64,000 nucleotides of DNA from Calditrichia bacterium (GTDB lineage Bacteria > Calditrichota > Calditrichia > JAJRVZ01): the NCBI GenBank assembly GCA_963777955.1, contig CAVZSQ010000019.1, positions 445,079 through 509,078 of the forward strand, in the 5' to 3' direction. Made by a program: the position numbers and the translations under genes. The notes below the pieces were generated by a model that saw only the letters and a program-made list of their open reading frames with translations, made no database searches and was not told where the DNA came from. Shown in pieces: positions 13,181 to 27,669 of the stretch (positions are counted from its first letter, which is position 1; every line of letters starts with the position of its first letter).

Positions 13181-13300
13181 ATAGTCTGGTTCATTTTATG
13201 AGGCAAGAAAATTTTATTAATTGTTATCTTTTCTAGTACTAATAGTCTGCATTTTGTGTAAAATTAATGTTTTATGATGATACTTTTTGAAAGGAAAAAT

Positions 13301-14714
13301 ATGACTCCAAAAGCATTTTTTGAATTTGCCAAAAGGGCTAAAGCCGAAATGGTTGATCTGAAATTTACCGACCTGCTGGGTACCTGGCAGCATTGTACCT
13401 TTCCTGTCGAGACCTGGGATGAAAAAACATTTGTCGAAGGGGTTGGATTTGACGGTTCTTCCATCCGCGGCTGGCAGGGTATTCATATGTCCGATATGCT
13501 GGCGGTTCCGGATTCCAACAGCACTAAACTGGATCCGATTTTCCGGGAACCCACTGTCAGCGTCATCGCCAACATTGTCGATCCCATTACACACGAAGAC
13601 TATTCCCGCGACCCCCGTCACGTGGCCCGCAAGGGTGTGGAATATCTGCGACAGACCGGGATTGCCGATCTCTGTCAGATTGGTCCGGAACCGGAATTTT
13701 TTATTTTCGATGAAATTCGCTATGAACAAAATCAACACATGGGTTTATACCAGATCGACTCTGTCGAAGGCGCCTGGAATACCAACCGTATCGAAGAACC
13801 CAATCTCGGCTATAAACCGAGTTTTAAAGGGGGTTATTTTCCAGTCAGTCCTACTGACACTTATCAGGACCTGCGCGGCGATATGGTCAATACCCTGCGC
13901 AAGCTGGGTATTGTCTGCGAAGCGCATCATCATGAAGTAGGCACCGGGGGACAAAGCGAGATCGATATACGTTTCACCGACCTGTTGACCATGGCCGACC
14001 AGATGATGTGGTACAAATACATTATCAAGAATATTGCCCGCAATGCCGGTAAAACAGTTACCTTCATGCCCAAACCGATTTTTGGGGATAATGGCAGCGG
14101 CATGCACACCCATTTTTCATTGTGGAAAAAGAACAAACCTCTGTTTGCCGGAAATGATTATGCCGGTTTGAGCGAGATGGCCTTGCATGCCATCGGCGGA
14201 GTAATAAAACATGCAGCCGCCATATCTAGCTATCGCCGCGCCTACTACCAATTCCTACCGCCGCCTGGTACCCGGTTTCGAAGCCCCGGTAAACCTGGCT
14301 TATTCCCAGCGCAACCGCTCGGCCTCGGTCCGTATACCAATGTATTCCCAAAATCCCAGGGCCAAGCGCTTTGAATTTCGTTGCCCCGATCCAAGTTGTA
14401 ATGGTTATCTGACTTTTACTGCTATTCTCATGGCGGTACTGGACGGTATCCAGAACAAAATGCATCCGGGTGATCCGCTGGATCGCGATATTTACGAAAT
14501 GTCACCGGCAGAGTTGGCCCACGTGCCAAAAGTACCGGGGACACTGGGAGAATCTATGCAGGCGCTGCAGAATGATCATGAGTTTCTGACCAGAGGGGGA
14601 GTCTTTACGGATGACCTGATCGAAACCTGGATAGATTACAAACAGAAAAATGAACTGCATGAACTGTCCATGCGTCCCCATCCGTATGAATTTTTTCTTT
14701 ATTATGACAGTTAG
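13301..14714 (+). CDS. glnA: Type I glutamine synthetase (frameshift near 14225)
   Basis: [66 protein letters not shown]. Confidence 0.97.
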
Positions 14715-14881: not shown

Positions 14882-17800
14882 ATGCCTAATAAATCTTTTA
14901 CTCTTCTAGTTTGTATTTTCTTTATACTGCTGTCCGCTATGGTAATCGCCGAACAGCCTGCCGACAGTACGTTCTCGGTCATCTTCCGGCACCGGCAGTC
15001 ACGGGAATATGTACCTGATATAAGAGACGCTGCCGGGGTTGCCTTCAGGGATATCAATGATGATGAATTACCCGATCTCTACATAGTCTGTATCCGGGGA
15101 GATAATCATCTGCTGCTGAACAGCGGTGCTTATCGTCCCTTCAAAGATGCAACTGCACTGTCCGGCCTGGATGGCAATCCGCGTCCCAGGGGATTTTATA
15201 ATATGGAAACCGGGACCAATACTTACGATCAGAAATTCGGTACCAACATTTGCGATCTCGACAATGACGGGGATGGGGACATCCTGATTGCCGGTTGGGG
15301 TATTGCTACCGCCCTTTACCGGAATAACGGTAATCTGCAATTCAGAAATATAACCGATCAACTGGAATTATTTCCCCCCATCAATGCCAACCAGTTTTAT
15401 GCGGCTGATCTAGACAACGACGGTTTGCTGGATCTGTTACTGACCGATGAAAATCACGGCGTCAGGCTGTTACGCAATTTAGGCGATAACTTTTTCCAGG
15501 ATATTACTTCCGGCAGTGGATTGGATACGGTCAGCACGGCCCGTTCGGCAGCATTTTGTGATTTTGATAACGACGGAGACGCAGATCTGTATCTGACCCG
15601 CTACAATAAACCGGATCAAATGTACCGTAATTCAGGTGATGGCCGCTTTATACCCCTGCCGGCCTTCCTGGCCGTGCTGCGACAGAATCTACCCTCTACC
15701 GGAATTAAGCTGGGGAGATATCGATAACGATACTGATCTGGATTTCCTGGTTACAGCCTCTGATGGCCACAACCGGTTATATCTGAATCAGACTGCACCC
15801 GGCGATTCCAATTGGATTTTCAGCGAATTCAACCCGCTCAGTGACGGGAAGTACCTTTTCCCCTCCTACGGGAGTATAATGGCTGATTTTAATAACGATG
15901 GCCTGCTTGATATCTTTATTGCCAATAGAGGTCCGAATGAACTCCTGTGGCAGCGCTCTCCGCTTCTATTTGAGCAAAGTTTTGAATATTCCCCGGCTAT
16001 CGTTAGATCTGCGACTCCGGCCGGCAGCCGCAGTGCAGTGTGCGCTGATTTTGATCTGGACGGTGATCTGGATGTGTTTGTTACCAATCTGGATACTTTC
16101 TGCGTGCTTTATCAGAACATGACCAACACTTCATCTTTTATAAAATTCAAATTAACCGGTACCATTTCCAACCGCGATGCAGTGGGAGCCAGGATTGAAT
16201 TACACCCGCCGGCGAATGATAAAGAAATAATTGCCATCCGTGAGATCAATGGCGGCGAAGGGTATCTTTCCGCCAACGAACCGCTGGTACATTTTGGACT
16301 GGATACACTGACCCGGGTTGATGCGACCATTCGTTTTCCCGGAGGCCGGATTATCAAGGCACAGGGACTGGCCGCCGGTCAGGTCCACCAGATCTATGAG
16401 TACGCCCTGCTGGAGCGTTCCTTTATTCAATTTTACCAGCATTTGTTGAGCCTGATGCGTCAGACTGTTTTCTGGTATCAGGTCATTCTGGCCCTGTTAT
16501 TCTTTATGTTGATTTTTGTCTTTGTACGGCTGGGCTTGAAGCGCTACCGTTGGAGTCCCGGAGCAGCGAGTGGTTACCTGGTAGGATTTTTTATTTCAGC
16601 ACTGATTGCGATTACGGCCTTAAAGAAACTTGGCTTGTTGACCATCTATATCACCATCGATATACTGACGATCCTGTTTATTATTATTTCCATCATTAAC
16701 TCGGAGCGTCTGTACCGTCTGCGCAGCATCCGCGAAAGATATCGTTCGATTCTGATCGACCTGAGCAACCAGATTGTCAATATTCATGATAATGACGAGT
16801 TATTCCGAACCGTAATCGAAAACATTCTGCAGATAACCGAATTTGATACCATCGTTATATTGGCACTTGATCGCAGTGAAAAAAATGTGGAGAACGTATT
16901 ATCACGGGGAGTCGAGGTCGGACCTCAGGATCCCGGTGCGCAGCAATGCTGGCCGGAATTTCTCCCGGCCATGCGGATTCATAAACATATACAGAAGAAT
17001 TTTCACCGCAATTATATCCCTCTGTTCAGTTTACTCGGTGCGGAAGTCATCTTAAGTATTGAAAGAGGCACCAGGATATACGGTTTACTATCTCTAGGCG
17101 CCCGGCACCCGATCAGTCCGCTTAAACGGGAAGATCTCGAATTATTCAAATCCTTGTGCAATCAGATGGCCGTGGCCCTGGAAAATAATGAATACATTCA
17201 CCGTTCCACCGAAATGATCAAGCGCTTAACTGCCGCTGAAGTACAGGAAAAATACCTGAAGGAACTGGAAGCAGCCTATACAGTTCTGGATTCAAAAAAC
17301 CGCGACCTGCAGCAGCTGTACGATGAGTTGAAGAATACCCAGGCACAGTTGATTCAGGCTGAAAAAATGGCTTCCCTTGGTCAACTGGTAGCCGGCATAT
17401 CGCATGAAATAAACAATCCGGTCGGATTTATTTATTCCAACGTCAAGCAACTGCAACAGTATACCCAGAGGATTGAAAACTTTATTGCCCGGCAATCCGA
17501 GGCCGATCAAATCAAACAGATCCTGCCCGATATAAAGAACCTGATCGAAGATACGATCACCGGCAGTAAAATGATCAAAGAACTGGTCAGCGATCTGCGT
17601 AGTTTTTCACACCTCGATCAGGCCAAGTGGCAAATGTTTAATATACATGATGGTCTGGAGAACAGCATTAAGATCATGCTGACCCAGTTCAAGCATCACC
17701 TCACCATCCAGCGCAGTTTCCACGCCGCAGGTGCACTGGAATGCAATCCCGGTCAACTTAATCAGGTTTTTCTGAATCTATTGACTAATGCGGCACAGGC

Positions 17801-18083
17801 TATTAAGGAAGAAGGTACCATTTGGATAGAAACTGAGGACCTGCGGCGGCAGAACTCCCTGGTTATCCGGATCAGGGATAATGGCATCGGTATGCCTGCT
17901 GAAACGGTCAATAAAATATTTGATCCATTCTTTACTACCAAGGACGTTGGTGAAGGAACCGGCTTGGGTTTGAGTATCAGTTATTCGATCATTAAAAATC
18001 ACGGCGGCAGCATCGAAGTGACCAGCACTCCCGGCAAGGGCAGCACGTTTACGATCACCCTGCCGTATAAAAAAACTTCGTAG
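14882..18083 (+). CDS. Sensor histidine kinase with N-terminal FG-GAP/ASPIC-UnbV (CRTAC1-like) domain, 3 TM, GAF-like, HisKA, HATPase (frameshift near 15700)
   Basis: Signal peptide; 7 DxDNDGxxD-type repeats; SNRDAVGARI...GEGYLSANEPLVHFGL..IRFPGG (ASPIC/UnbV); EKMASLGQLVAGISHEINNP; NQVFLNLLTNA; DNGIGM; FFTTK..GEGTGLGL. Confidence 0.88.
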
Positions 18084-18192
18084 GCACGATAAATGCGCCC
18101 CCGCGAACACAATAATAAATCATGTTTCGTATTTAAACTTTACCCACATTCCTACGTACTATCTTTTATAGAACGGGAGGGATTATCGGATC

Positions 18193-19282
18193 ATGACCAA
18201 TTCGAAAAGCAGAGACGCCGAGCCGAAATTATTCAAAACATTTTTTGATGATATAAACCGGGTAAATATCCGGCGTTCTTTTAAAACCGACTGGAATGAG
18301 TTAAAGGAATTTTTTATAACCGAGCAGCGCAAAAAAAAATTACTGCACATGTCCCGGTTCCGCCGCTGGTTGTATACCGTCGGCTGGATGTTAAAGGGCC
18401 TTTTTCTGCGTCTGACCCCTTTTCGCCGACTGACTGCTGGTAATTGCCACTTTTTGCTTACTGATCTCCCAGAACACACAAAATAATCAGAATAGCCTGA
18501 TATTTATAGGGCTGCTGATATTACTCTTTATCTTAATGCTGGAACTCAAAGACAAGTTACTGGCTCATGAAGAATTAGAGGCCGGCCGGGCGGTGCAACA
18601 GGCTTTATTACCGGAATCGAAACCTGCCATTCCGGGCTGGCAAATCTGGCTATCCACCTCACCGGCTTACGAAATTGGCGGAGATCTGGTGGATTATATT
18701 CCTTTTAATCGGCATCATGCCCTGGTGCTGGCGGATGTATCGGGTAAAGGACTGGCCGCAGCCCTGTTCATGGCCAAACTGCAGGCTACCATCCGCGCCC
18801 TGGTTGCCGATGTTTCCGATCTGACCACGCTGGGAAGAAAAATCAATTCCATTTTTTATCGTGATACCCGCCGTCAGAGTTTTGCTTCCCTGCTGCTGAT
18901 CGGTCTTGGATCGATCCCGGGAAAAATAAATTTGCTGAATGCCGGACATCTGCCGCCGCTGCTGATTCAAAACGATAAGATTGTAGAACTACCTAAAGGT
19001 TCAACAGCAATTGGACTGGCTGCCGGAACAGTTTTTGCCGAACAGGAGATTACACTCCAGCCCAACGATATTTTCCTTGGCTATACCGATGGACTGGTCG
19101 AATCCCGGAATTCCGCAGGAGAATTTTTCGGAGAGGAACGATTAAGAAATTTACTGTACGATTTTGCCCATCTTTCGCCGGAATTGCTGGCCCAGCGAAT
19201 ATTCGATACAATCCATGACTTCGTCAATGAAACAGCCAAGCATGACGATCTTTCCCTGGTTATAATTAAACGTATCGCTTGA
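18193..19282 (+). CDS. PP2C/SpoIIE (RsbU-like) Ser/Thr phosphatase with N-terminal membrane anchor (frameshift near 18430)
   Basis: AVQQALLP, IGGDLVD, LADVSGKG, NAGHLPP, YTDGLVE, HDDLS. Confidence 0.9.
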
Positions 19283-19347
19283 TTATTATTCCTGCCCTGA
19301 TTAGGTTTAAACAGACTATTGGCACTTAATCATTCTAATAATCGGCT

Positions 19348-20781
19348 ATGAATAAAGATACTATTCTTATAGTTGATGATCAGCCGGAAATCCTGAATGC
19401 CCTGGAACGTCTGTTAAAAGAAGAATATCAGATACTGACGGCAGCCAGTGGTTCAGCTGCCCTGGAAATCCTGGCTAAACAACAGGTAACCGTCATTCTG
19501 GCCGATCAGCGCATGCCCGGGATGACCGGCGTCGAATTTTTTTCCCGGGCTCTTGAACAGCAGCCGGATACCATAAGAATCCTGATCACGGCTTATGCCG
19601 ACATCACCGCTTCCATTGATGCTGTCAACCGCGGACAGATATTTTATTATATTTCCAAGCCATGGGAACCGGAAGAGTTGTTACTGATTGTACGCCGGGC
19701 CGTGGAAAAATTCCGCTTGCTGCGCGAGAATAAAGAACTGAATCAAAAATTACATGAAGCAAATGTACAACTGCAGCAGGAAAATGTTTTGCTCAAACAG
19801 AGTATCACCCGGGAATATGATTTCAGCAGCATTATCGGTCACGCTCCGCGGATGCTGCAGGTGTTCAAACTGGTTTCCCGGATTATCGATACTTCCACCA
19901 CCGTATTATTGCTCGGTGAAACCGGAACCGGCAAGGAGTTGATCGCCCGGGCCATACACTTTAATGGCCCCCGTAAGGGTGAACTGTTTGTGGCCCAGAA
20001 TTGCGGTGCCCTGCCGGATACTTTGCTGGAGAGTGAACTTTTCGGTCATACCCGCGGATCCTTTACCGGGGCAGTTGCCGATCGTAAAGGTATTTTCGAA
20101 CTGGCCGACGGCGGAACTGTTTTTCTGGATGAGATCGCCGATACTTCCCCGGCACTGCAGGTACGCCTGCTCAGAGTACTTCAGGAAGGGGAAATCAAAC
20201 CGGTTGGCGGTACCAAAACGAATAAAGTGGACGTACGGGTAATCGCGGCGACTAACAAAAATCTGGAACAAATGGTCAGTGAACACAATTTCCGTGAGGA
20301 TCTTTATTACCGCCTGAATGTATTTCCGATCATTCTACCGCCTCTGCGCGAACGCCGTGATGATATCAGCGACCTGGTAAATCATTTTGTTATTAAATAT
20401 GCCCAAAAGATCAATAAGAACATAACTGCCATAACCCCGGAAGCTATGCAATTGCTGATACAGGCTAATTTCCCCGGCAATATCCGTGAACTGGAAAACG
20501 AAATTGAACGGGCTGTCACCTTAACCGACGATAACTCTGCCATAACACCCGAAGTTCTGTCAACCCGCTTCCACCAGTCGCAAATATTTTCGCTACCCGA
20601 GAAAGACATTTTACAGCGCCCCATGAAAGATCAGGTGGAAGAACTGGAAAAACACATGATTCTGCATGCCCTGCGGGAAACACATGGCAACATACTGCAT
20701 GCGGCTGAAAAACTTCATCTTAGCCGCGCCGGCCTGCATAAAAAAATTAACCGTTATAAACTCCCCGTCAAAGTAAAGTAA
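19348..20781 (+). CDS. Sigma54-dependent response regulator (NtrC family)
   Basis: REC domain (DD, DQRMP, KPW); GETGTGKE; ESELFGH..GSFTGA; FREDLYYRL; PGNIRELEN; Fis HTH. Confidence 0.95.
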   Translation: MNKDTILIVDDQPEILNALERLLKEEYQILTAASGSAALEILAKQQVTVILADQRMPGMTGVEFFSRALEQQPDTIRILITAYADITASIDAVNRGQIFYYISKPWEPEELLLIVRRAVEKFRLLRENKELNQKLHEANVQLQQENVLLKQSITREYDFSSIIGHAPRMLQVFKLVSRIIDTSTTVLLLGETGTGKELIARAIHFNGPRKGELFVAQNCGALPDTLLESELFGHTRGSFTGAVADRKGIFELADGGTVFLDEIADTSPALQVRLLRVLQEGEIKPVGGTKTNKVDVRVIAATNKNLEQMVSEHNFREDLYYRLNVFPIILPPLRERRDDISDLVNHFVIKYAQKINKNITAITPEAMQLLIQANFPGNIRELENEIERAVTLTDDNSAITPEVLSTRFHQSQIFSLPEKDILQRPMKDQVEELEKHMILHALRETHGNILHAAEKLHLSRAGLHKKINRYKLPVKVK

Positions 20782-20816
20782 ACATAGTTTACACACAACT
20801 GTAAACAGTGTTTACA
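20778..20816. promoter_or_regulatory. Tandem palindromic enhancer (UAS) sites
   Basis: GTAAACATAGTTTAC (20778-20792) and TGTAAACAGTGTTTACA (20800-20816), about 100 bp upstream of the sigma54 site. Confidence 0.7.
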
Positions 20817-20900
20817 TATTTCTATTCAGAATAGATTTATTGTTGTATATTTTTATATGTAACTTCAATAAAAACAATACACATACATATTTTAATTATC

Positions 20901-20916
20901 TGGCACGCTAATTGTA
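20901..20916 (+). promoter_or_regulatory. Sigma54 -24/-12 promoter
   Basis: TGGCACGCTAATTGTA versus consensus TGGCACG-N4-TTGCW (one mismatch, correct spacing). Confidence 0.8.
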
Positions 20917-20964
20917 TATTTATTTTCCAGTAGTTATAATAAAGGAAGTAAAGGAGTAAATAAA

Positions 20965-22234
20965 ATGAAAAAACAAAACTGGTTCCTAACCTTAGCCGTA
21001 GTGATGCTGGCTAGTTTTGCCCTGGTGGGGTGTTACACCAGATTCGGCTTCGTTCATCAGGAAACCGGTTATGAAGATGAAGAGACTTTATGAAGCGGAA
21101 GTTGCTGACGAAGCTGAAATCGGTGAAACCGACGATGTCCCTTGTTGTGATGACAGGTATGACCATTATTATGTCCGCGATCATTATTTCTATGATCCCT
21201 GGTGCTGGGAGCCCGGATTTTACGTTTCGGTAGGTTTCGGCTGGGATTATTTCGATCCGTACTGGTACTATCCTTACTATTATTATCCATATCGTCCTTA
21301 CTACCACTATCCCTATGTGGCTTATCCTTATCCGTTTGTTTATCCATGGGGTTATCCGGTCTGGTACTATGAGCCCGATTATAACTATGCTTACAACTAT
21401 GAACGCCGGCCCTTTGTAAAACGGGGACAGTATCTGCCGGCCAGACGGGGAATGGATCTTAACGAGCGAATGGAATTGGCCAACCGGCCCGGACGCCGCG
21501 TGGGAGTTACCGATCGTAATCGCGAACTGGTCTCCGGCAACATCAGAACTGCTGATATCAGCCGCGATAATAACCGCGATAGAATTTCCGCCCGCAGTGC
21601 AGCAGTCAAAACTCGTGAGAAAGACAATACTGCTACTCGCGCCAAATCTACGACGACCGCAGTCGGGGAACGACGGGAAGTCACCAATTCAGGAAATCGC
21701 GAAACTACCCGGCGCAATGGCAAAGAAACTACCACTACGACCAGGGAAAATACGGGAAAGAGATCTGCGACGACGACAACAAAACGTACTGATTCATCAT
21801 CGACAAGAGTGAATAAAGTAAATAATAATACTCATGATTCAAATAGCGGCAACTCTTCAGTGAACGGACGGTCCAGTGTGACGCGACCGGCTTCAGGATC
21901 TAACAAAAATTCTTCCGGTTCCGCTAACTCTTCAAGATCATCAAACTCCTCAAACGGAAATTCCAAGGTCACCCGTTCCAATTCCGGTTCAAGCGATCGT
22001 TCAGCTGGTTCCCGCAGCAGCAATTCCTCAACGGTTACCCGTTCCAGTTCCGGTTCGGGTAAAAGTTCCTCGAGTTCAGGCAGAAGTTCTTCCGGTTCCA
22101 GCGGCCGTTCCTATTCAGCCCCGTCCAGCAGCCACGGTAGTTCTTCCTCGGGCGGCAGCCAAAGTTCCGGCAGATCAAGTTCAGGTAGTTCAGGTGGATC
22201 AAGCAGATCCGGTTCAGGCGGACACAGACGCTAA
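20965..22234 (+). CDS. Lipoprotein with Tyr/Pro-rich segment and long Arg/Thr/Ser/Gly disordered tail (frameshift near 21087)
   Basis: AAGGAG RBS; ATG 20965 gives MKKQNWFLTLAVVMLASFALVG-C (lipobox), joining the 405-aa frame at YEAEVADE. Confidence 0.8.
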
Positions 22235-22266
22235 GAGCCCGAGTCAATATAATGGAGAAAATTAAA

Positions 22267-23643
22267 ATGAAAAAGTATATAACTCTGCTAATCATGGCCT
22301 TCGGCCTGCTGCAATGGTGCCTGGCTCAATCCCCGCAAGAGGCAGTGAATCTGCTGGATAACGAAGACGGAGTGGGCGCCAGAGCTCTGGGCATGGGTAA
22401 TGCTTTCAATGCTGTGGCTGATGACTATACAGCCACGTACTGGAATCCGGCCGGATTAACCCAACTGGACTATAATGAAATCTCAGCCAACCTTTCCAAT
22501 TTACGGTTTGAGAATGAAGCCTTATTCCATAATACCACTACTCTGGATAATCGCAGCTGGGCAAAATTTCATTCCTTTGGCCTGGCTTATAAATTCCCGA
22601 CCACCCGCGGCAGTTTTGTACTGGGTTTTGGTTTTAATCGTTTCAAAAATTATAATGACTTCCTGTCCTTTAACGGTTATAACCGCAACAGCAACGGCCT
22701 GGAATTTGAACTGGAGGATGATTTCGGGGAGTACCAGTACTATCCGTTTGATCAGGATGTGCAGCAGAATGAAACGGTCAGCCAGGACGGCAGTTTAAAT
22801 GCCTGGACCCTGGCAGGCGGTATGCAGTTATCACCCACTTTTTCTCTGGGCCTGGCTATCAATGTATATACCGGTAAAAGCGAATACCTGCTGGATTTCA
22901 ACCAGGAAGATGTGGATAATATCTATAATCAGTACCCGGGTGATTTCAATTATTATGAACTGCATCAGCAGATCCTGACCGATATGTATGGTTGGGGTCT
23001 CAAAGTGGGCAGCTTGATAAAAGTGACCCCGCAACTGAATCTGGGCTTTACCGTCGAATTTCCGACCACCTTGCATGTAACAGAAACTTACGCCGCCAAT
23101 GATCTGCTGGAATTCGACGACGGATATATCAGCGAACTGGATCTTGGCAGCGGCGAATGGGAATACCTGGTCACTTATCCCTATAAATTCAGTGCCGGTG
23201 CCGCTGTGAACCTGAATCTCTTTAAACTGGCCGGTTCTATTGATTATCGCGACTGGTCGCAGGTTCGTTTTGACATACCGGACGGATTCGCACTGGATGA
23301 ATACTACAACGATTTATTGTATGAGAATCAAAATTTTCCAGAACAATTCAAATCGGTGCTTTCTTATTCAGCCGGAGGCGAAGTACGTATTCCCGGTTCG
23401 CCGTTACTGCTCAGAGGCGGATACCGCTTTGTGCCCTCCCCTCTGCGTGAAACGAATCCTGATCTGGACCGTAATTATTACAGTGCCGGTTTGGGGTATG
23501 ATATTGATGGATCTACTTCTCTGGACGTAGGCATGACCTGGGGCAAAATCAAACGGCAAAGCGTCGATTCCTATACTCCCGGCGGAACCGATGAATCGAT
23601 TAGCACCACCCGGGTCCTGGCGGGAGTTACATTTAGGTTGTAG
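22267..23643 (+). CDS. OmpP1/FadL-family outer membrane beta-barrel
   Basis: Signal peptide; GARALGMGNAFNAVADD..ATYWNPAGL; amphipathic C-terminal strand. Confidence 0.88.
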   Translation: MKKYITLLIMAFGLLQWCLAQSPQEAVNLLDNEDGVGARALGMGNAFNAVADDYTATYWNPAGLTQLDYNEISANLSNLRFENEALFHNTTTLDNRSWAKFHSFGLAYKFPTTRGSFVLGFGFNRFKNYNDFLSFNGYNRNSNGLEFELEDDFGEYQYYPFDQDVQQNETVSQDGSLNAWTLAGGMQLSPTFSLGLAINVYTGKSEYLLDFNQEDVDNIYNQYPGDFNYYELHQQILTDMYGWGLKVGSLIKVTPQLNLGFTVEFPTTLHVTETYAANDLLEFDDGYISELDLGSGEWEYLVTYPYKFSAGAAVNLNLFKLAGSIDYRDWSQVRFDIPDGFALDEYYNDLLYENQNFPEQFKSVLSYSAGGEVRIPGSPLLLRGGYRFVPSPLRETNPDLDRNYYSAGLGYDIDGSTSLDVGMTWGKIKRQSVDSYTPGGTDESISTTRVLAGVTFRL

Positions 23644-23646
23644 TAC

Positions 23647-23737
23647 AGGGACAAAGGGACAAAGATACAAAGGGACAGAGAAATAAAGTCAATCATATCC
23701 AGCACTTTGTCCCTTTGTCTCTTTGTCCCTTTGTATC
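23647..23737. repeat. Inverted pair of 8-bp tandem repeats (GGGACAAA)n...(TTTGTCCC)n
   Basis: agggacaaagggacaaagatacaaagggacagag / ctttgtccctttgtctctttgtccctttgtatct. Confidence 0.85.
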
Positions 23738-23776
23738 TTCTTAGAACACCCACAGGCATTCTCTGCCTGAATCCAT

Positions 23777-23813
23777 AAAGCATCCGCTGATTGCGCGCAG
23801 CGGGTGCTTTTTT
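23777..23813 (+). terminator. Intrinsic terminator candidate (middle of three hairpins)
   Basis: AAAGCATCCGCTG...CAGCGGGTGCTTTTTT. Confidence 0.65.
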
Positions 23814-23940: not shown

Positions 23941-24405
23941 ATGTTCAATAATCTCAAAACAACTTTCGATCAACTGGATCTGAAAATAGTACGGTTTATG
24001 TCGACCTACGGTCTCAAATCGCTGCGCATCAGCCTGGGTATTATTTTTTTCTGGTTTGGATTCTTGAAATTCTTTCCACATCTCAGTCCGGCCCAGCAAC
24101 TCGCTACCGCCACCATTTCCAGACTCACCTTCGGCCTGGTCTCCCCGGCTACTGCTCTGTTCCTCCTGGCCTGCTGGGAAACCATGATCGGTATCGGTCT
24201 TATCTTTGGCTTCTGGATGCGGTTTATCCTGTTTTTACTTTTTATGCAGATGCTGGGCACCATTACTCCGCTGTTTCTTTTTCCGGCCGAAACTTTTTCG
24301 CATATTCCCTATGCTCCTACTTTAGAGGGACAATATATTATTAAAAATATCGTGTTGATCTCCGCGGCACTGGCCCTGGGGGCGACAGTGCGCAAACCCT
24401 CCTGA
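23941..24405 (+). CDS. DoxX/YkgB-like membrane protein
   Basis: LRISLGIIFFWFGFLKFF...SPA; PTLEGQYIIKN. Confidence 0.85.
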   Translation: MFNNLKTTFDQLDLKIVRFMSTYGLKSLRISLGIIFFWFGFLKFFPHLSPAQQLATATISRLTFGLVSPATALFLLACWETMIGIGLIFGFWMRFILFLLFMQMLGTITPLFLFPAETFSHIPYAPTLEGQYIIKNIVLISAALALGATVRKPS

Positions 24406-24548: not shown

Positions 24549-26987
24549 ATGATAAAAATTTCAAAACGGATCGGTTTATACCTGGCTATAAACCTGGTCA
24601 TACTTATTGTTTGCTTCCTGCATTTACCGGCGGTTTTAAACCGTCCTATGGTTCCCTTCCATATAATTAAAACCGGTCAGGGTCTGATTATCGATAAAAT
24701 AAATGATCCCCTGGCCAGCGGTGAATTGCAGATTGGCGACCGGGTAATTGCCTGGGATAAGCAGTCTGTCAATATTCCTGAGGTTACAGAATTCCTGGGC
24801 GAAATGTCAAAAATCGGAAATAACGTTACTATTACTTTTCAACGGCAGGTCATAACCGGCACGACTGCCATAACCCTGATCCCCTTTCATCATACTCTTC
24901 GTTATATATTCATTATTTTCTTCGTCGGCCTGATGACCTGGGGCGTGGCAATTTTTGTTTTACTCAAAGGTCCGCCTGCACTCAGCACCACGGTTTTGCA
25001 TTGGATCATGGCCTCTTTTGGATTTGTGATCATGTTGACCACGGGGGTCATCGACCAGGACAGTATATTCTCATATTTGACCCGCTCTTTATTCCTGATT
25101 TTTTATATGACCACTGCCAGTGGTTTGTTCTTTTTTTCCGCCATATTTCCCAAACAAAAGTCGGTAATCAGTAAGGCAATTTCCATCTTCATTCCGGCCG
25201 CTGTTTTTACTGCCTTACTGATTTTTTATATGCTGCGGGCTATATATTATTACTCGGTAATTGAGTACGCCCGCTTTCAGTTCTTGTTCAATATTTTCCA
25301 TATATCCCTCTATATTTTTATCGGCGGAAGTTTAATTAATTTTTTTCATGCCTATTACAGCAGCAAACAGGTTGACGATCACCTTCGCTTGCGTCTGATT
25401 TTCTGGGGAATACTGCTTGGTGCCGCACCATTTTTATTACTCAGCATTCTGCCTCAAATCCTGGGCCGCAGTGAATTGATCCGCGAGGAATTCACTCTCA
25501 TTTTTTTCCTGTTCATTCCGTATGCCTTTGCCCTGGCTATTCTCAAGTATCGTCTGCTGGACATCGACCTGATCATCAATCGTATTCTGGTTTATGGTTT
25601 ACTGACTTTTTTTCTCGGTGCCATCTATATCCTTACGGTCCTGATGGTAATTTCGGTAATCGGTGGTGAAATCGTATTCGACGATTATCTGTTCTTATTG
25701 CTGACCACTCTGTTCGTGGCAATTATCTTTAATCCTCTGCGGCGGGGTTTACAGAAAATAATCAACGATCTGTTTTTTTCAGCCAGGGAAAATTACCGTC
25801 AGGCGGTTCATGCTATCAATACCGATCTGGAAAACTGCTGGAGCAGCGATGCGCTGTTCCGGCAATTGATTAACAGTTTGAGCCGTTTTGTACCCAATCA
25901 GCATCTGGCTTTATTCCGGGTCGTGGAAGACACACTGCAGTTGCAGTATTCCTCCCGCAGCGATACTCCACGGCAGTTCTCCTTTCCGGGTATAAACCTG
26001 CAGCAGTTAATTTCAACCGGGCAGATTCATGCTTTACCGAAATCAGTTTATCTGCACCCGGAACAGGTGGATTTTGCGCAGAGCGATTTTTTACAGCAGA
26101 TTAATTTCCCGGTATGTATACCGCTGCTGACCAAAACATCTTATTTTAAAGGTATACTGTGTGCTACGCCGTACCATAACCGCTTCATTGCCGCCGAGTT
26201 GGATTTATTGCGCACCGCCTGCCTGCAGGCCTCGGAAATACTGGACCGGCTGATCTTACAGGAACGCATGATCATCGAGCGGGAAGAAAAAAATCGACTG
26301 AAGGAAATCAGTTCTTACATCATCTCGCTGGTAGCTCATGAATTGCAATCACCGCTTACTTCCATCCGCTTATTTTCCGAAATGCTGTCGCAGCAGAATA
26401 AAAACTTATCCGCAGAACACCGGGAATACCTGGAGACTATAAATAATGAAACCATGCGCCTGTCACGACTGATTAAAAACGTTCTGGACTTTTCCCGGAT
26501 CGAACGGGGCCTTAAGGAATATCACTTCGAAATATTAACACTTAACCGGTTGGTTGAGCATACGTTGAATCTATTTAAACAGCAACTGCAGCAAGCTGGT
26601 TTTCAACTGGAGCTGGCTCTGACCGAGCAGGATACTACTTTGCGGGCCGATGAAGATGCTTTGATTTCAGCCCTCGGAAACCTGATCGTCAATTCGATCA
26701 AATATTCACCGGCAGAGAGATACCTGGCCATCTCAACCCGTTGCCAGAACCAGCACATTCAGCTCTGTATCAAGGATAAAGGTATCGGTATTCCTGAGAC
26801 AGAACAGAATCTGGTATTCGATGATTTTTACCGTGCAAGCAGCAGCCAGGTACAATCATTAAGCGGGCTCGGGCTGGGTTTAGCCCTGGTTAAACGCATT
26901 ATTGTCGCCCACCATGGTGAAATCAGACTGGAGAGCAGGCCCGGGCAGGGCACGACATTTACAATCACTTTACCAGCGGGAGTCTGA
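24549..26987 (+). CDS. Multi-TM sensor histidine kinase (PDZ-like, about 9 TM, GAF-like, HisKA, HATPase)
   Basis: LQIGDRVIA (PDZ-like); AILKYRLLDID; AHELQSPLTSI; NLIVNSIKYS; DKGIGI; GLGLGL. Confidence 0.9.
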   Translation: MIKISKRIGLYLAINLVILIVCFLHLPAVLNRPMVPFHIIKTGQGLIIDKINDPLASGELQIGDRVIAWDKQSVNIPEVTEFLGEMSKIGNNVTITFQRQVITGTTAITLIPFHHTLRYIFIIFFVGLMTWGVAIFVLLKGPPALSTTVLHWIMASFGFVIMLTTGVIDQDSIFSYLTRSLFLIFYMTTASGLFFFSAIFPKQKSVISKAISIFIPAAVFTALLIFYMLRAIYYYSVIEYARFQFLFNIFHISLYIFIGGSLINFFHAYYSSKQVDDHLRLRLIFWGILLGAAPFLLLSILPQILGRSELIREEFTLIFFLFIPYAFALAILKYRLLDIDLIINRILVYGLLTFFLGAIYILTVLMVISVIGGEIVFDDYLFLLLTTLFVAIIFNPLRRGLQKIINDLFFSARENYRQAVHAINTDLENCWSSDALFRQLINSLSRFVPNQHLALFRVVEDTLQLQYSSRSDTPRQFSFPGINLQQLISTGQIHALPKSVYLHPEQVDFAQSDFLQQINFPVCIPLLTKTSYFKGILCATPYHNRFIAAELDLLRTACLQASEILDRLILQERMIIEREEKNRLKEISSYIISLVAHELQSPLTSIRLFSEMLSQQNKNLSAEHREYLETINNETMRLSRLIKNVLDFSRIERGLKEYHFEILTLNRLVEHTLNLFKQQLQQAGFQLELALTEQDTTLRADEDALISALGNLIVNSIKYSPAERYLAISTRCQNQHIQLCIKDKGIGIPETEQNLVFDDFYRASSSQVQSLSGLGLGLALVKRIIVAHHGEIRLESRPGQGTTFTITLPAGV

Positions 26988-26988
26988 C

Positions 26989-27669
26989 ATGAAGAAAATA
27001 CTGATCATTGAAGACGATCCCACAATTTCCAAAGGTTTACAGATCAGTTTGCAGGCCGAGCATTATGATATTCTGACCAGTTCCAGCGGCGAAAAAGGAT
27101 TTCAGTTAGCACAGCAGGAAAATATCGATCTGATTATCCTTGACCTGATGTTACCGGGAAAGAACGGAGAGGAAATTTGCCGGGATTTGCGGCAAAAAGG
27201 CCTGCGCACGCCCATCCTCATTCTGACCAGCCGCAGCGAAGAGATCGATAAAGTTTTGTTGCTGGAAATGGGCGCAGACGATTACATGACCAAACCTTTC
27301 GGGATTCGCGAATTGCAGGCCAGGGTGAAAGTCCTGCTGCGCCGGGGCAGCGAAATACGTGCCCAGATCGAAACATATTCTTTTGCCGATATCAATCTTG
27401 ATTTTATCAAGCAGGAAGCCAGCAAGAAGAAAAAACCGTTACAACTTACCACCAAGGAGTTCGAGATCCTGCATTTCTTTATCCAGCATGAAGGACAGGT
27501 GATCAGCCGCGATGTACTTTTAGATGAAGTGTGGGGTTATGAAGTTTTCCCCACTACCCGCACTGTGGATAATTACATTCTCGCCTTGCGAAAAAAAATT
27601 GAAGCAGATTCAACCCAGCCCAGACACCTGCTGACGATCCCCAAAGCCGGTTATAAGTTTGTGAAATGA
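26989..27669 (+). CDS. OmpR/PhoB-family response regulator
   Basis: ILIIEDD, DLMLP, GADDYMTKPF, RTVDNYILALRKKIE. Confidence 0.95.
   Translation: MKKILIIEDDPTISKGLQISLQAEHYDILTSSSGEKGFQLAQQENIDLIILDLMLPGKNGEEICRDLRQKGLRTPILILTSRSEEIDKVLLLEMGADDYMTKPFGIRELQARVKVLLRRGSEIRAQIETYSFADINLDFIKQEASKKKKPLQLTTKEFEILHFFIQHEGQVISRDVLLDEVWGYEVFPTTRTVDNYILALRKKIEADSTQPRHLLTIPKAGYKFVK

Follow-up and report, generated by a model that had tools for sequence, protein, structure and literature searches.

Between positions 14,882 and 23,643, a 64,000-nucleotide stretch of a Calditrichia bacterium genome (GenBank assembly GCA_963777955.1, contig CAVZSQ010000019.1, positions 445,079 to 509,078 of the forward strand; hereafter the window, in whose own numbering positions are given) carries genes for a sensor histidine kinase, a PP2C phosphatase, an NtrC-type sigma54 activator, a lipoprotein and an outer-membrane barrel. 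Does this row of genes form one signalling circuit, and what would its last two genes do for the cell? A sequence-only reading of the DNA had proposed a self-contained and undescribed envelope- or surface-sensing system, with the phosphatase as an unexplained extra component. Judged by its sequence, the locus is a sigma54-dependent two-component envelope system: the HisKA histidine and HATPase domain, the receiver aspartate, the AAA+ loop, the helix-turn-helix (HTH), the -24/-12 promoter, the enhancer and a genomic rpoN are all present. Comparison with relatives indicates that the kinase and activator are very probably linked to the promoter of the lipoprotein and barrel genes.

Conservation of the locus

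All five genes are found on the plus strand of the window, and their Pfam domains confirm the co-oriented kinase, PP2C and NtrC-type regulator followed by two envelope genes. The genome carrying the window (G000) was compared with a genome of the same genus (G001) and with further members of the phylum (G numbers denote genomes and L numbers individual loci or stretches). The barrel was searched in 60 relatives and part of the kinase in all 86 genomes of the phylum. By a hand count from the barrel and kinase listings, the two genes lie within 20 kb of each other in 31 of the 60 relatives, far apart on one contig in three (G013, G020 and G022) and on different contigs in 20, and one of them gave no strong hit in the remaining six. 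Where both markers were on one contig, the kinase, activator, lipoprotein and barrel were all within 20 kb in 31 of 34 relatives.

Kinase-activator-lipoprotein-barrel was the core order in the 40 stretches compared in gene maps, and the same four-gene core was found in another phylum, in two of 81 sampled genomes (G091 and G166). The five-gene synteny proposed earlier thus holds across the phylum for four genes, including the lipoprotein and barrel that had been read as the two-gene envelope output, and fails for PP2C, which separates kinase and activator in G000 and G001 alone. Two properties of the sample weigh against the account as a whole: the 40 stretches were mostly chosen for having both genes on one contig, and the genomes compared are kin. 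Close homologues carry the source labels Calditrichales, Calditrichia, Calditrichota, KSB1 or Marinimicrobia.

The enhancer and the -24/-12 promoter

Two GTAAAC-N3-GTTTAC palindromes (20778-20792 and 20801-20815) lie in front of the lipoprotein gene with their centres 23 bp apart, the first overlapping the activator stop codon. They are the only matches in the window at up to one mismatch, with 0.07 expected by chance, and stand as originally placed. The A+T-rich spacer and the word TGGCACG-N4-TTGTA behind them were likewise recovered. The enhancer centres are 117 bp (site 1) and 94 bp (site 2) upstream of the GG of this word, which is weak alone, as 15 of 100 shuffles yield one. Only two-mismatch integration host factor (IHF)-like words were found in the spacer.

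The case for these elements comes from their recurrence. Among the 35 loci where a lipobox was detected, 30 show a -24/-12 word (TGG-N8-TTG) no more than 120 nt from the lipoprotein start (shuffles 1.4, maximum 4), and an enhancer at up to two mismatches precedes the lipoprotein in 28 (shuffles 0.12, maximum 2). Two enhancer sites at up to four mismatches occur in 26 of the 35, with a spacing of 22-24 or 29-31 bp in 24 of these. The five missed loci and one skipped for its lipobox also carry the two elements: one locus has a CGG variant, and in the other five the elements are placed further upstream, ahead of a short leader frame. Enhancer and promoter therefore precede the lipoprotein in 36 of 36 loci examined, so that the predicted conservation of the upstream activating sequences and of -24/-12 is borne out. 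These loci are non-independent trials, because the genomes are related and the window itself supplied the consensus. In family f2 (L052, L053, L055, L059, L061), the sigma54 promoter is separated from the lipoprotein by a short, partly hydrophobic reading frame.

The elements stay with the lipoprotein rather than with the activator. Where the activator is followed by an inserted 156-aa gene, they still precede the lipoprotein, and in G013 they precede the unlinked lipoprotein (L079), with none behind the activator (L078). An origin of the enhancer as a by-product of the activator stop codon is ruled out, since a gene insertion separates the enhancer from the stop. The inserted gene (HAD-like by eye) directly follows the activator in L057, L058, L060, L062-L064, L068, L069, L071 and L078, occurs in at least two families and stays with the activator where the locus splits; its protein had no Pfam match at 0.01.

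The base after TTG is T or A in 27 of 30 orthologous promoters and in 14 of 16 promoter-like words elsewhere in G000. The TTGT at -12 follows this rule of the lineage, and its reading as a defect is ruled out. Words resembling -24/-12, mostly with T or A at -12, were also seen by eye in G000 before dnaK-, small heat-shock protein- and ammonium transporter-like genes.

The sensor kinase

The kinase consists of a hydrophobic N-terminal segment, an FG-GAP propeller with five DxDxDG-type motifs, a UnbV domain, three hydrophobic membrane helices, and GAF, HisKA and HATPase domains. The codon of the HisKA histidine is at 17403, and the H840, N981 and G-box columns are invariant in 33 orthologues. 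The model of the intact G001 kinase (pLDDT 81) had murine CRTAC1 (9etn) as its best Foldseek match (E 4.6e-27, 527 columns, TM 0.71 by target), so the CRTAC1 likeness noticed in the sequence is upheld by structure. The propeller-then-UnbV module is common to CRTAC1/ASPIC-UnbV proteins and the kinase, whereas in the kinase it is fused to three membrane helices, a GAF domain and a histidine kinase. From the signal-like start and the three membrane helices, we infer that the propeller and UnbV are periplasmic and the GAF and kinase domains cytoplasmic.

Our literature search found no paper on a propeller-UnbV/histidine-kinase fusion. Numerous full-length relatives share the make-up of the kinase; when named genomes were scanned with the complete kinase alignment, mostly kinase cores came back, with one full-length relative among 78 loci. 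About 57 in-frame bases of the HisKA linker of G001 are absent from the G000 kinase at window position 17496.

The outer-membrane barrel

The barrel model (pLDDT 91) has a FadL fold with a hatch-type N-terminus, in agreement with its Toluene_X domain. Its top Foldseek match is Bacteroides thetaiotaomicron BamG (TM 0.62, rmsd 6.2). In VIA-align, FadL, TodX, TbuX and CymD score Z 30-34, BamG chains 30-31 and PorV/PorQ 26-27. The N-terminal extension has about 7 mature residues, compared with 10-12 in BamG; the alignment starts at barrel model residue 24 for BamG, and FadL residue 1 falls at 27.

Profile searches separate the barrel from the named families. It scores 51 bits against the NCBIfam BamG model NF053685 (cut-off 250) and 41.6 of 90 bits against the PorV model NF033709, over an N-terminal stretch only. 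The barrel profile matched only FadL/TodX-type transporters in the PDB, without BamG, and a single-sequence PDB search gave no match. The best FadL-family match of the genome is another gene, on contig C22 (217 bits versus 64 for the barrel), so of the earlier label "FadL barrel" the fold stands and the identity with the genome's FadL does not. A quick tree groups the barrel with one Ignavibacteria and four Bacteroidota barrels (support 90, unstarred), apart from BamG (100) and FadL (97). By sequence and tree, the barrel belongs to a separate clade of the FadL fold and is neither the FadL nor the BamG of this genome. Several f2 genomes have a second barrel paralogue.

In all five Ignavibacteria and Bacteroidota members of the clade, the gene before the barrel encodes an exported protein that combines an aromatic-rich part with a Ser/Gly/Arg tail, and the Bacteroidota pairs adjoin proS. 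Words resembling -24/-12 lie upstream of the pair in the Ignavibacteria locus and in three of the four Bacteroidota loci; the Bacteroidota point is weak because two of the words are inside the neighbouring proS frame. Two Bacteroidota barrels had no Pfam family. We presume that Porphyromonas gingivalis PG1626 is a member of this clade as well. In the accessible text of PMC1887533, PG1626 is listed as a "putative hemin receptor".

A probable bamH-bamG pair, a DUF4270-like lipoprotein followed by a barrel, was located elsewhere in G000 (C17:145835-148214). It is frameshifted; the profile of its barrel matches solved BamG at 1.7e-40, and its two frameshifted pieces are below the NF053685 cut-off. 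The DUF4270-like lipoprotein was found in 64 of 86 genomes. We take DUF4270 to be the family of BamH, and the DUF4270-like profile gave no match to BamH. In the other genomes fetched, bamH-bamG is flanked on one side by a glycogen-synthase-like/phosphatase block and on the other by a TPR-like gene or rpiB-glyA. An identity of the window's lipoprotein-barrel pair with bamH-bamG, suggested by Foldseek and by supplement tags, is ruled out by the separate C17 pair, the profiles and the tree.

The lipoprotein and its predicted docking to the barrel

After its lipobox (CYT), the lipoprotein has an acidic Tyr/Trp-rich half and then a long Ser/Arg/Lys-rich tail. In 32 orthologues, the acidic half contains 22-32% Tyr plus Trp and the basic tail 12-38% Ser. 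No Pfam or NCBIfam family was found for it, its profile gave low-complexity matches only, and an Atlas search returned only unnamed clusters.

The G001 barrel was modelled together with the first 150 mature residues of the lipoprotein. The complex scored 0.70, compared with 0.11 for the best control, and its mark was reached by 116 of 157 solved pairs and two of 215 mismatched pairs; the runs share at least 37% of their contacts. Lipoprotein residues 118-133 contact the N-terminal extension and the inner face of the extracellular half of the barrel (strand order read by hand). The docked stretch contains R/K-x-F/W in 28 of 32 lipoproteins, and opposite the docked Arg and Lys the barrel has acidic residues in all 32. 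The lipoprotein is thus predicted to dock by an R-x-F/W motif in the outer vestibule of the barrel. Four points count against this docking: the lipoprotein has a low-confidence fold in the complex (pLDDT 33-36), the contact columns are no better conserved than the rest of the barrel (0.50 vs 0.55), the motif is not evident in the Ignavibacteria partner (alignment row) or the four Bacteroidota partners (by eye), and the complex score may echo solved BamG-BamH complexes.

Other genes behind the enhancer

The perfect 17-mer enhancer occurs 38 times in 30 of the 86 genomes scanned, compared with 12 times for a reversed control. A -24/-12 word lies 35-300 nt from 29 of the 38 sites, compared with about 6% of random points in G000. 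Eighteen sites precede the lipoprotein. Another 11 accompany a -24/-12 word in front of other genes, and 10 of these genes have a signal-like start by eye. The nine sites without a strict promoter comprise five in coding sequence (one judged from coordinates only), three near-variant promoters by eye and one with none. By these counts the circuit is not closed, as the enhancer would serve other secreted-protein genes too; "self-contained" was too strong, given also the split locus in G013, G020 and G022.

The extra site in G000 (C22:330327, within an arrangement at C22:328737-330343) is a perfect enhancer with -24/-12 72 bp away, precedes the gene of a 438-aa secreted protein of no Pfam family, and is kept in G001. 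A second secreted gene follows that gene, and the arrangement in G001 is alike. Several other targets are secreted, Tyr-rich and Arg/Lys-rich, one with R-D-W-D-R-R, and none of the seven secondary targets tested had a Pfam family. A secreted protein family with an Arg/Lys-rich and then a Tyr-rich part is encoded at L194:4737-5687, L200:4113-4850 and L207:199-1056, from three different families, with the enhancer 63-64 bp before -24/-12; tblastn gave no match to it in G000. Apparently homologous lipoprotein-like genes of about 250 aa at L198:3238-3999 and L201:4247-4993 have a perfect enhancer and a variant -24/-12 word.

A candidate function for the circuit

We propose the following course of events. 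The propeller and UnbV would bind Ca2+, and probably also a protein or a cue at the surface, and the kinase histidine would pass phosphate to Asp53 of the activator. The phosphorylated activator would bind the tandem enhancer, with the DNA looping over the A+T-rich spacer, and switch on the lipoprotein and barrel genes. The barrel may then hold the lipoprotein by R-x-F/W in its extracellular vestibule, as BamG holds BamH, and may anchor, or help to export, this disordered, Tyr-rich and strongly basic protein at the surface. Taken as a whole, from propeller kinase through sigma54 activator to a predicted surface complex, the account is in our judgement rather probable and no firmer than that, because surface anchoring or display is so far predicted. 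The likeliest role appears to be the construction or adjustment of the cell surface, rather than fatty-acid uptake.

A bolder version, which we advance tentatively, would add the barrel to BamG and PorV as a third way of using the FadL fold: an unrecognised surface-display or export route of FCB phyla for disordered, Tyr-rich, polybasic proteins tagged with R-x-F/W. The CRTAC1-like kinase of Calditrichota would watch this route and drive, as one sigma54 regulon, the barrel together with its main cargo and other secreted proteins bearing the tag.

With the same regulation, the barrel might instead be a FadL/TodX-like channel for hydrophobic compounds, with the lipoprotein as a lid or scavenger and the kinase sensing the compound. 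The Z scores of the transporters, equal to or above those of BamG, agree with such a channel, as do the PDB matches of the barrel profile and the name "long-chain fatty acid transport protein" that sources give to homologues. The entry of PG1626 as a putative hemin receptor would also fit, provided that this protein does belong to the clade. Yet the strong FadL-family match is the gene on C22, the barrel extension aligns with that of BamG and not with FadL (the extension of BamG occupies its lateral opening), no conserved catabolic neighbours accompany the locus, and the other enhancer targets resemble secreted proteins. We regard the channel as unlikely. The barrel shares the fold and the hatch-type N-terminus with FadL, TodX, TbuX and CymD, and differs from them in its sequence (14-18% identity), its extended N-terminus, its fixed lipoprotein partner and the presence of a separate FadL-like gene in the genome.

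It seems to us quite unlikely that the pair is an inducible alternative to BamG/BamH, joining BamA and helping outer-membrane or surface proteins to fold under envelope stress. The top Foldseek match, the N-terminal extension in common with BamG, the lipoprotein-then-barrel order and the predicted extracellular partner would fit it. Against it stand the separate bamH-bamG pair on C17, whose match to solved BamG the window barrel profile does not share, the NF053685 score far below its cut-off, the separate clades, and a lipoprotein that is low-complexity rather than DUF4270-like. According to the accessible text of PMC12611786 and PMC12578637, BamG and BamH are essential parts of BAM, conserved in FCB phyla including Caldithrix, and the N-terminal extension of BamG fills its lateral opening. 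The window pair resembles BamG-BamH in having a FadL-fold barrel with an N-terminal extension, a lipoprotein gene directly upstream and a partner predicted to be extracellular. The two pairs are not orthologous, and the window partner is disordered and predicted to dock by an internal motif, not by its N-terminus.

Which activator reads the enhancer

The activator has a receiver domain (REC, Asp53), an AAA+ domain and an HTH_8 domain, with the loop GSFTGA in the window and GAFTGA in most orthologues matched. Its Fis-type helix reads SRAGLHKK; most orthologues have S-R-x-G-L-H-K, and five f2 loci have G-L-Q-K. At the third position of the half-site, the 31 loci with a His helix have T in 93 of 108 halves, and the five with a Gln helix have C in 15 of 20. 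A perfect TGT site was found in none of 17 f2 genomes and in none of four f4 genomes, which have the His helix. In the other phylum, G091 has a Tyr helix and two TGTCTA-N5-TAGACA sites, the only two in its genome, and G150, which gave no kinase match, retains the lipoprotein-barrel pair without promoter or palindrome. Because the sites change where its DNA-binding helix changes, the activator next to the kinase likely reads the enhancer.

Several observations limit this assignment. G000 has 16 activator-type AAA+ domains, so another activator could read the site; TGC is also found in 6 of the 108 halves from His-helix loci; His changed to Gln just once, within a single family; and G166, the second Tyr-helix locus, has mixed sites. 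A different sigma54 activator of G000 as the reader, with the kinase-activator pair a mere conserved neighbour, would be helped by these 16 domains and by the split of the locus in three genomes, and palindromes ending in TG..CA are common among sigma54 activators. It is hard to reconcile with a site that changes with the helix of the neighbouring activator, with a G-L-H/Q-K that is kept in the orthologues and absent from the C-termini of the other G000 activators compared, and with cis-sites in the second phylum that are present where the kinase was found (G091, G166) and missing in G150 without it. We consider it improbable.

The phosphatase

PP2C homologues, some 370 aa long and carrying a hydrophobic segment ahead of the catalytic domain, were found in 35 of 86 genomes, and in the 33 other than G000 and G001 they are placed elsewhere, on other contigs. 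A functional fifth component that tunes the circuit by Ser/Thr dephosphorylation is extremely unlikely: its co-orientation between kinase and activator in G000 and G001, and the presence before the kinase in G020 and G022 of another SpoIIE-type gene, distinct and longer (628 aa, 28% identity), are outweighed by its absence from the locus in every other mapped genome and by unrelated insertions at the same spot in G002, G006 and G009. From this distribution, PP2C is a genus-specific insertion, a passenger and no core part, and its inclusion in the circuit is not supported.

Relation to described systems

The closest described analogue is PrsK/PrsR. In the accessible text of PMC1569441, a membrane kinase and an NtrC-like activator are described, often with a repeated enhancer on the scale of 17 nt and then -24/-12 before exported surface proteins. 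The kinase-activator pair, the layout of enhancer and -24/-12 and the definition by comparison are shared with the locus as far as that text goes. The locus is not a member of this system, as its activator scores 356 bits (cut-off 502.6) on TIGR02915 and its kinase 86 (cut-off 300) on TIGR02916; its sensor is a CRTAC1-like propeller, and its targets are a lipoprotein and barrel, not PEP-CTERM proteins. A search for PEP-CTERM targets gave no match in G000, and none in control genomes either. NtrB/NtrC, AtoS/AtoC and ZraS/ZraR have in common with the locus a HisKA/HATPase kinase, a REC-AAA-HTH activator and tandem palindromes about 100 bp upstream of -24/-12. The locus falls below every named family cut-off and differs from these NtrC-class systems in sensor domain, site sequence and targets.

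The claim that the system is undescribed stands within the literature searched, which excluded subscription journals and some supplements. A term search of the main text of the C. abyssi genome paper gave no mention, and the main text of the sigma54 regulon survey PMC12316311 contains neither "Calditrich" nor "FadL"; supplements of the survey may list these promoters.

The locus would thus provide a first predicted regulon for a little-studied phylum, with a defined enhancer and a sensor architecture that we did not find described. The one-residue change in the helix tracks a one-base change in the site and is directly testable. The barrel-lipoprotein pair recurs in Bacteroidota and Ignavibacteria without an assigned family or function, and offers a short docking motif to mutate. 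After BamG was shown to be an essential assembly factor, this barrel clade is a natural next candidate for a non-transport role.

Feature coordinates, sequence quality and neighbouring genes

Table 1. Features of the locus, in window positions.
Feature	Position	Strand	Evidence
Sensor histidine kinase	14882..18083	+	Pfam, structure model of G001 orthologue, hydropathy
SpoIIE-type PP2C, membrane-anchored	18193..19282	+	Pfam, synteny, hydropathy
NtrC-type sigma54 activator	19348..20781	+	Pfam, motifs
Enhancer site 1, one mismatch to TGTAAAC-N3-GTTTACA	20777..20793		Motif scan
Enhancer site 2, perfect match	20800..20816		Motif scan
A+T-rich spacer, 83%	20817..20900		Composition
Sigma54 -24/-12 site	20901..20916	+	Motif scan
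Lipoprotein	20965..22234	+	Lipobox Cys at 21031, composition
Codons of conserved R-x-F/W motif, predicted docking stretch	21404..21424	+	Complex model, alignment
FadL-fold outer-membrane barrel	22267..23643	+	Pfam Toluene_X, model, tree
Terminator-like hairpin, end of output operon	23777..23810	+	Consensus scan only

Compared with G001, the kinase (~15705), PP2C (~18434) and lipoprotein (~21085) genes each contain one extra base. Close-relative contigs lack the base at 15705 in two runs and that at 18434 in one run; for 21085, there was no close-relative contig lacking it among the matches listed. Since unrelated G000 genes (glnA, a glycogen-synthase-like gene and bamG) are broken likewise, the three frameshifts are probably assembly errors, and real gene decay is an unlikely cause. 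The glnA gene (13274-14714), split by a frameshift at ~14230, is one sign of many indel errors in the assembly.

Downstream of the barrel, short GGGACAAAG-type repeats occur in both orientations at 23646-23740; they are probably a dispersed intergenic repeat, since many unrelated contigs match there. A second two-component pair follows at 24549-27669, consisting of a GAF membrane kinase and an OmpR-type regulator, and this second kinase is also found in G001, G002 and G008. A DoxX-like gene (23941-24405) lies between the barrel and the second kinase only in G000 and G001.

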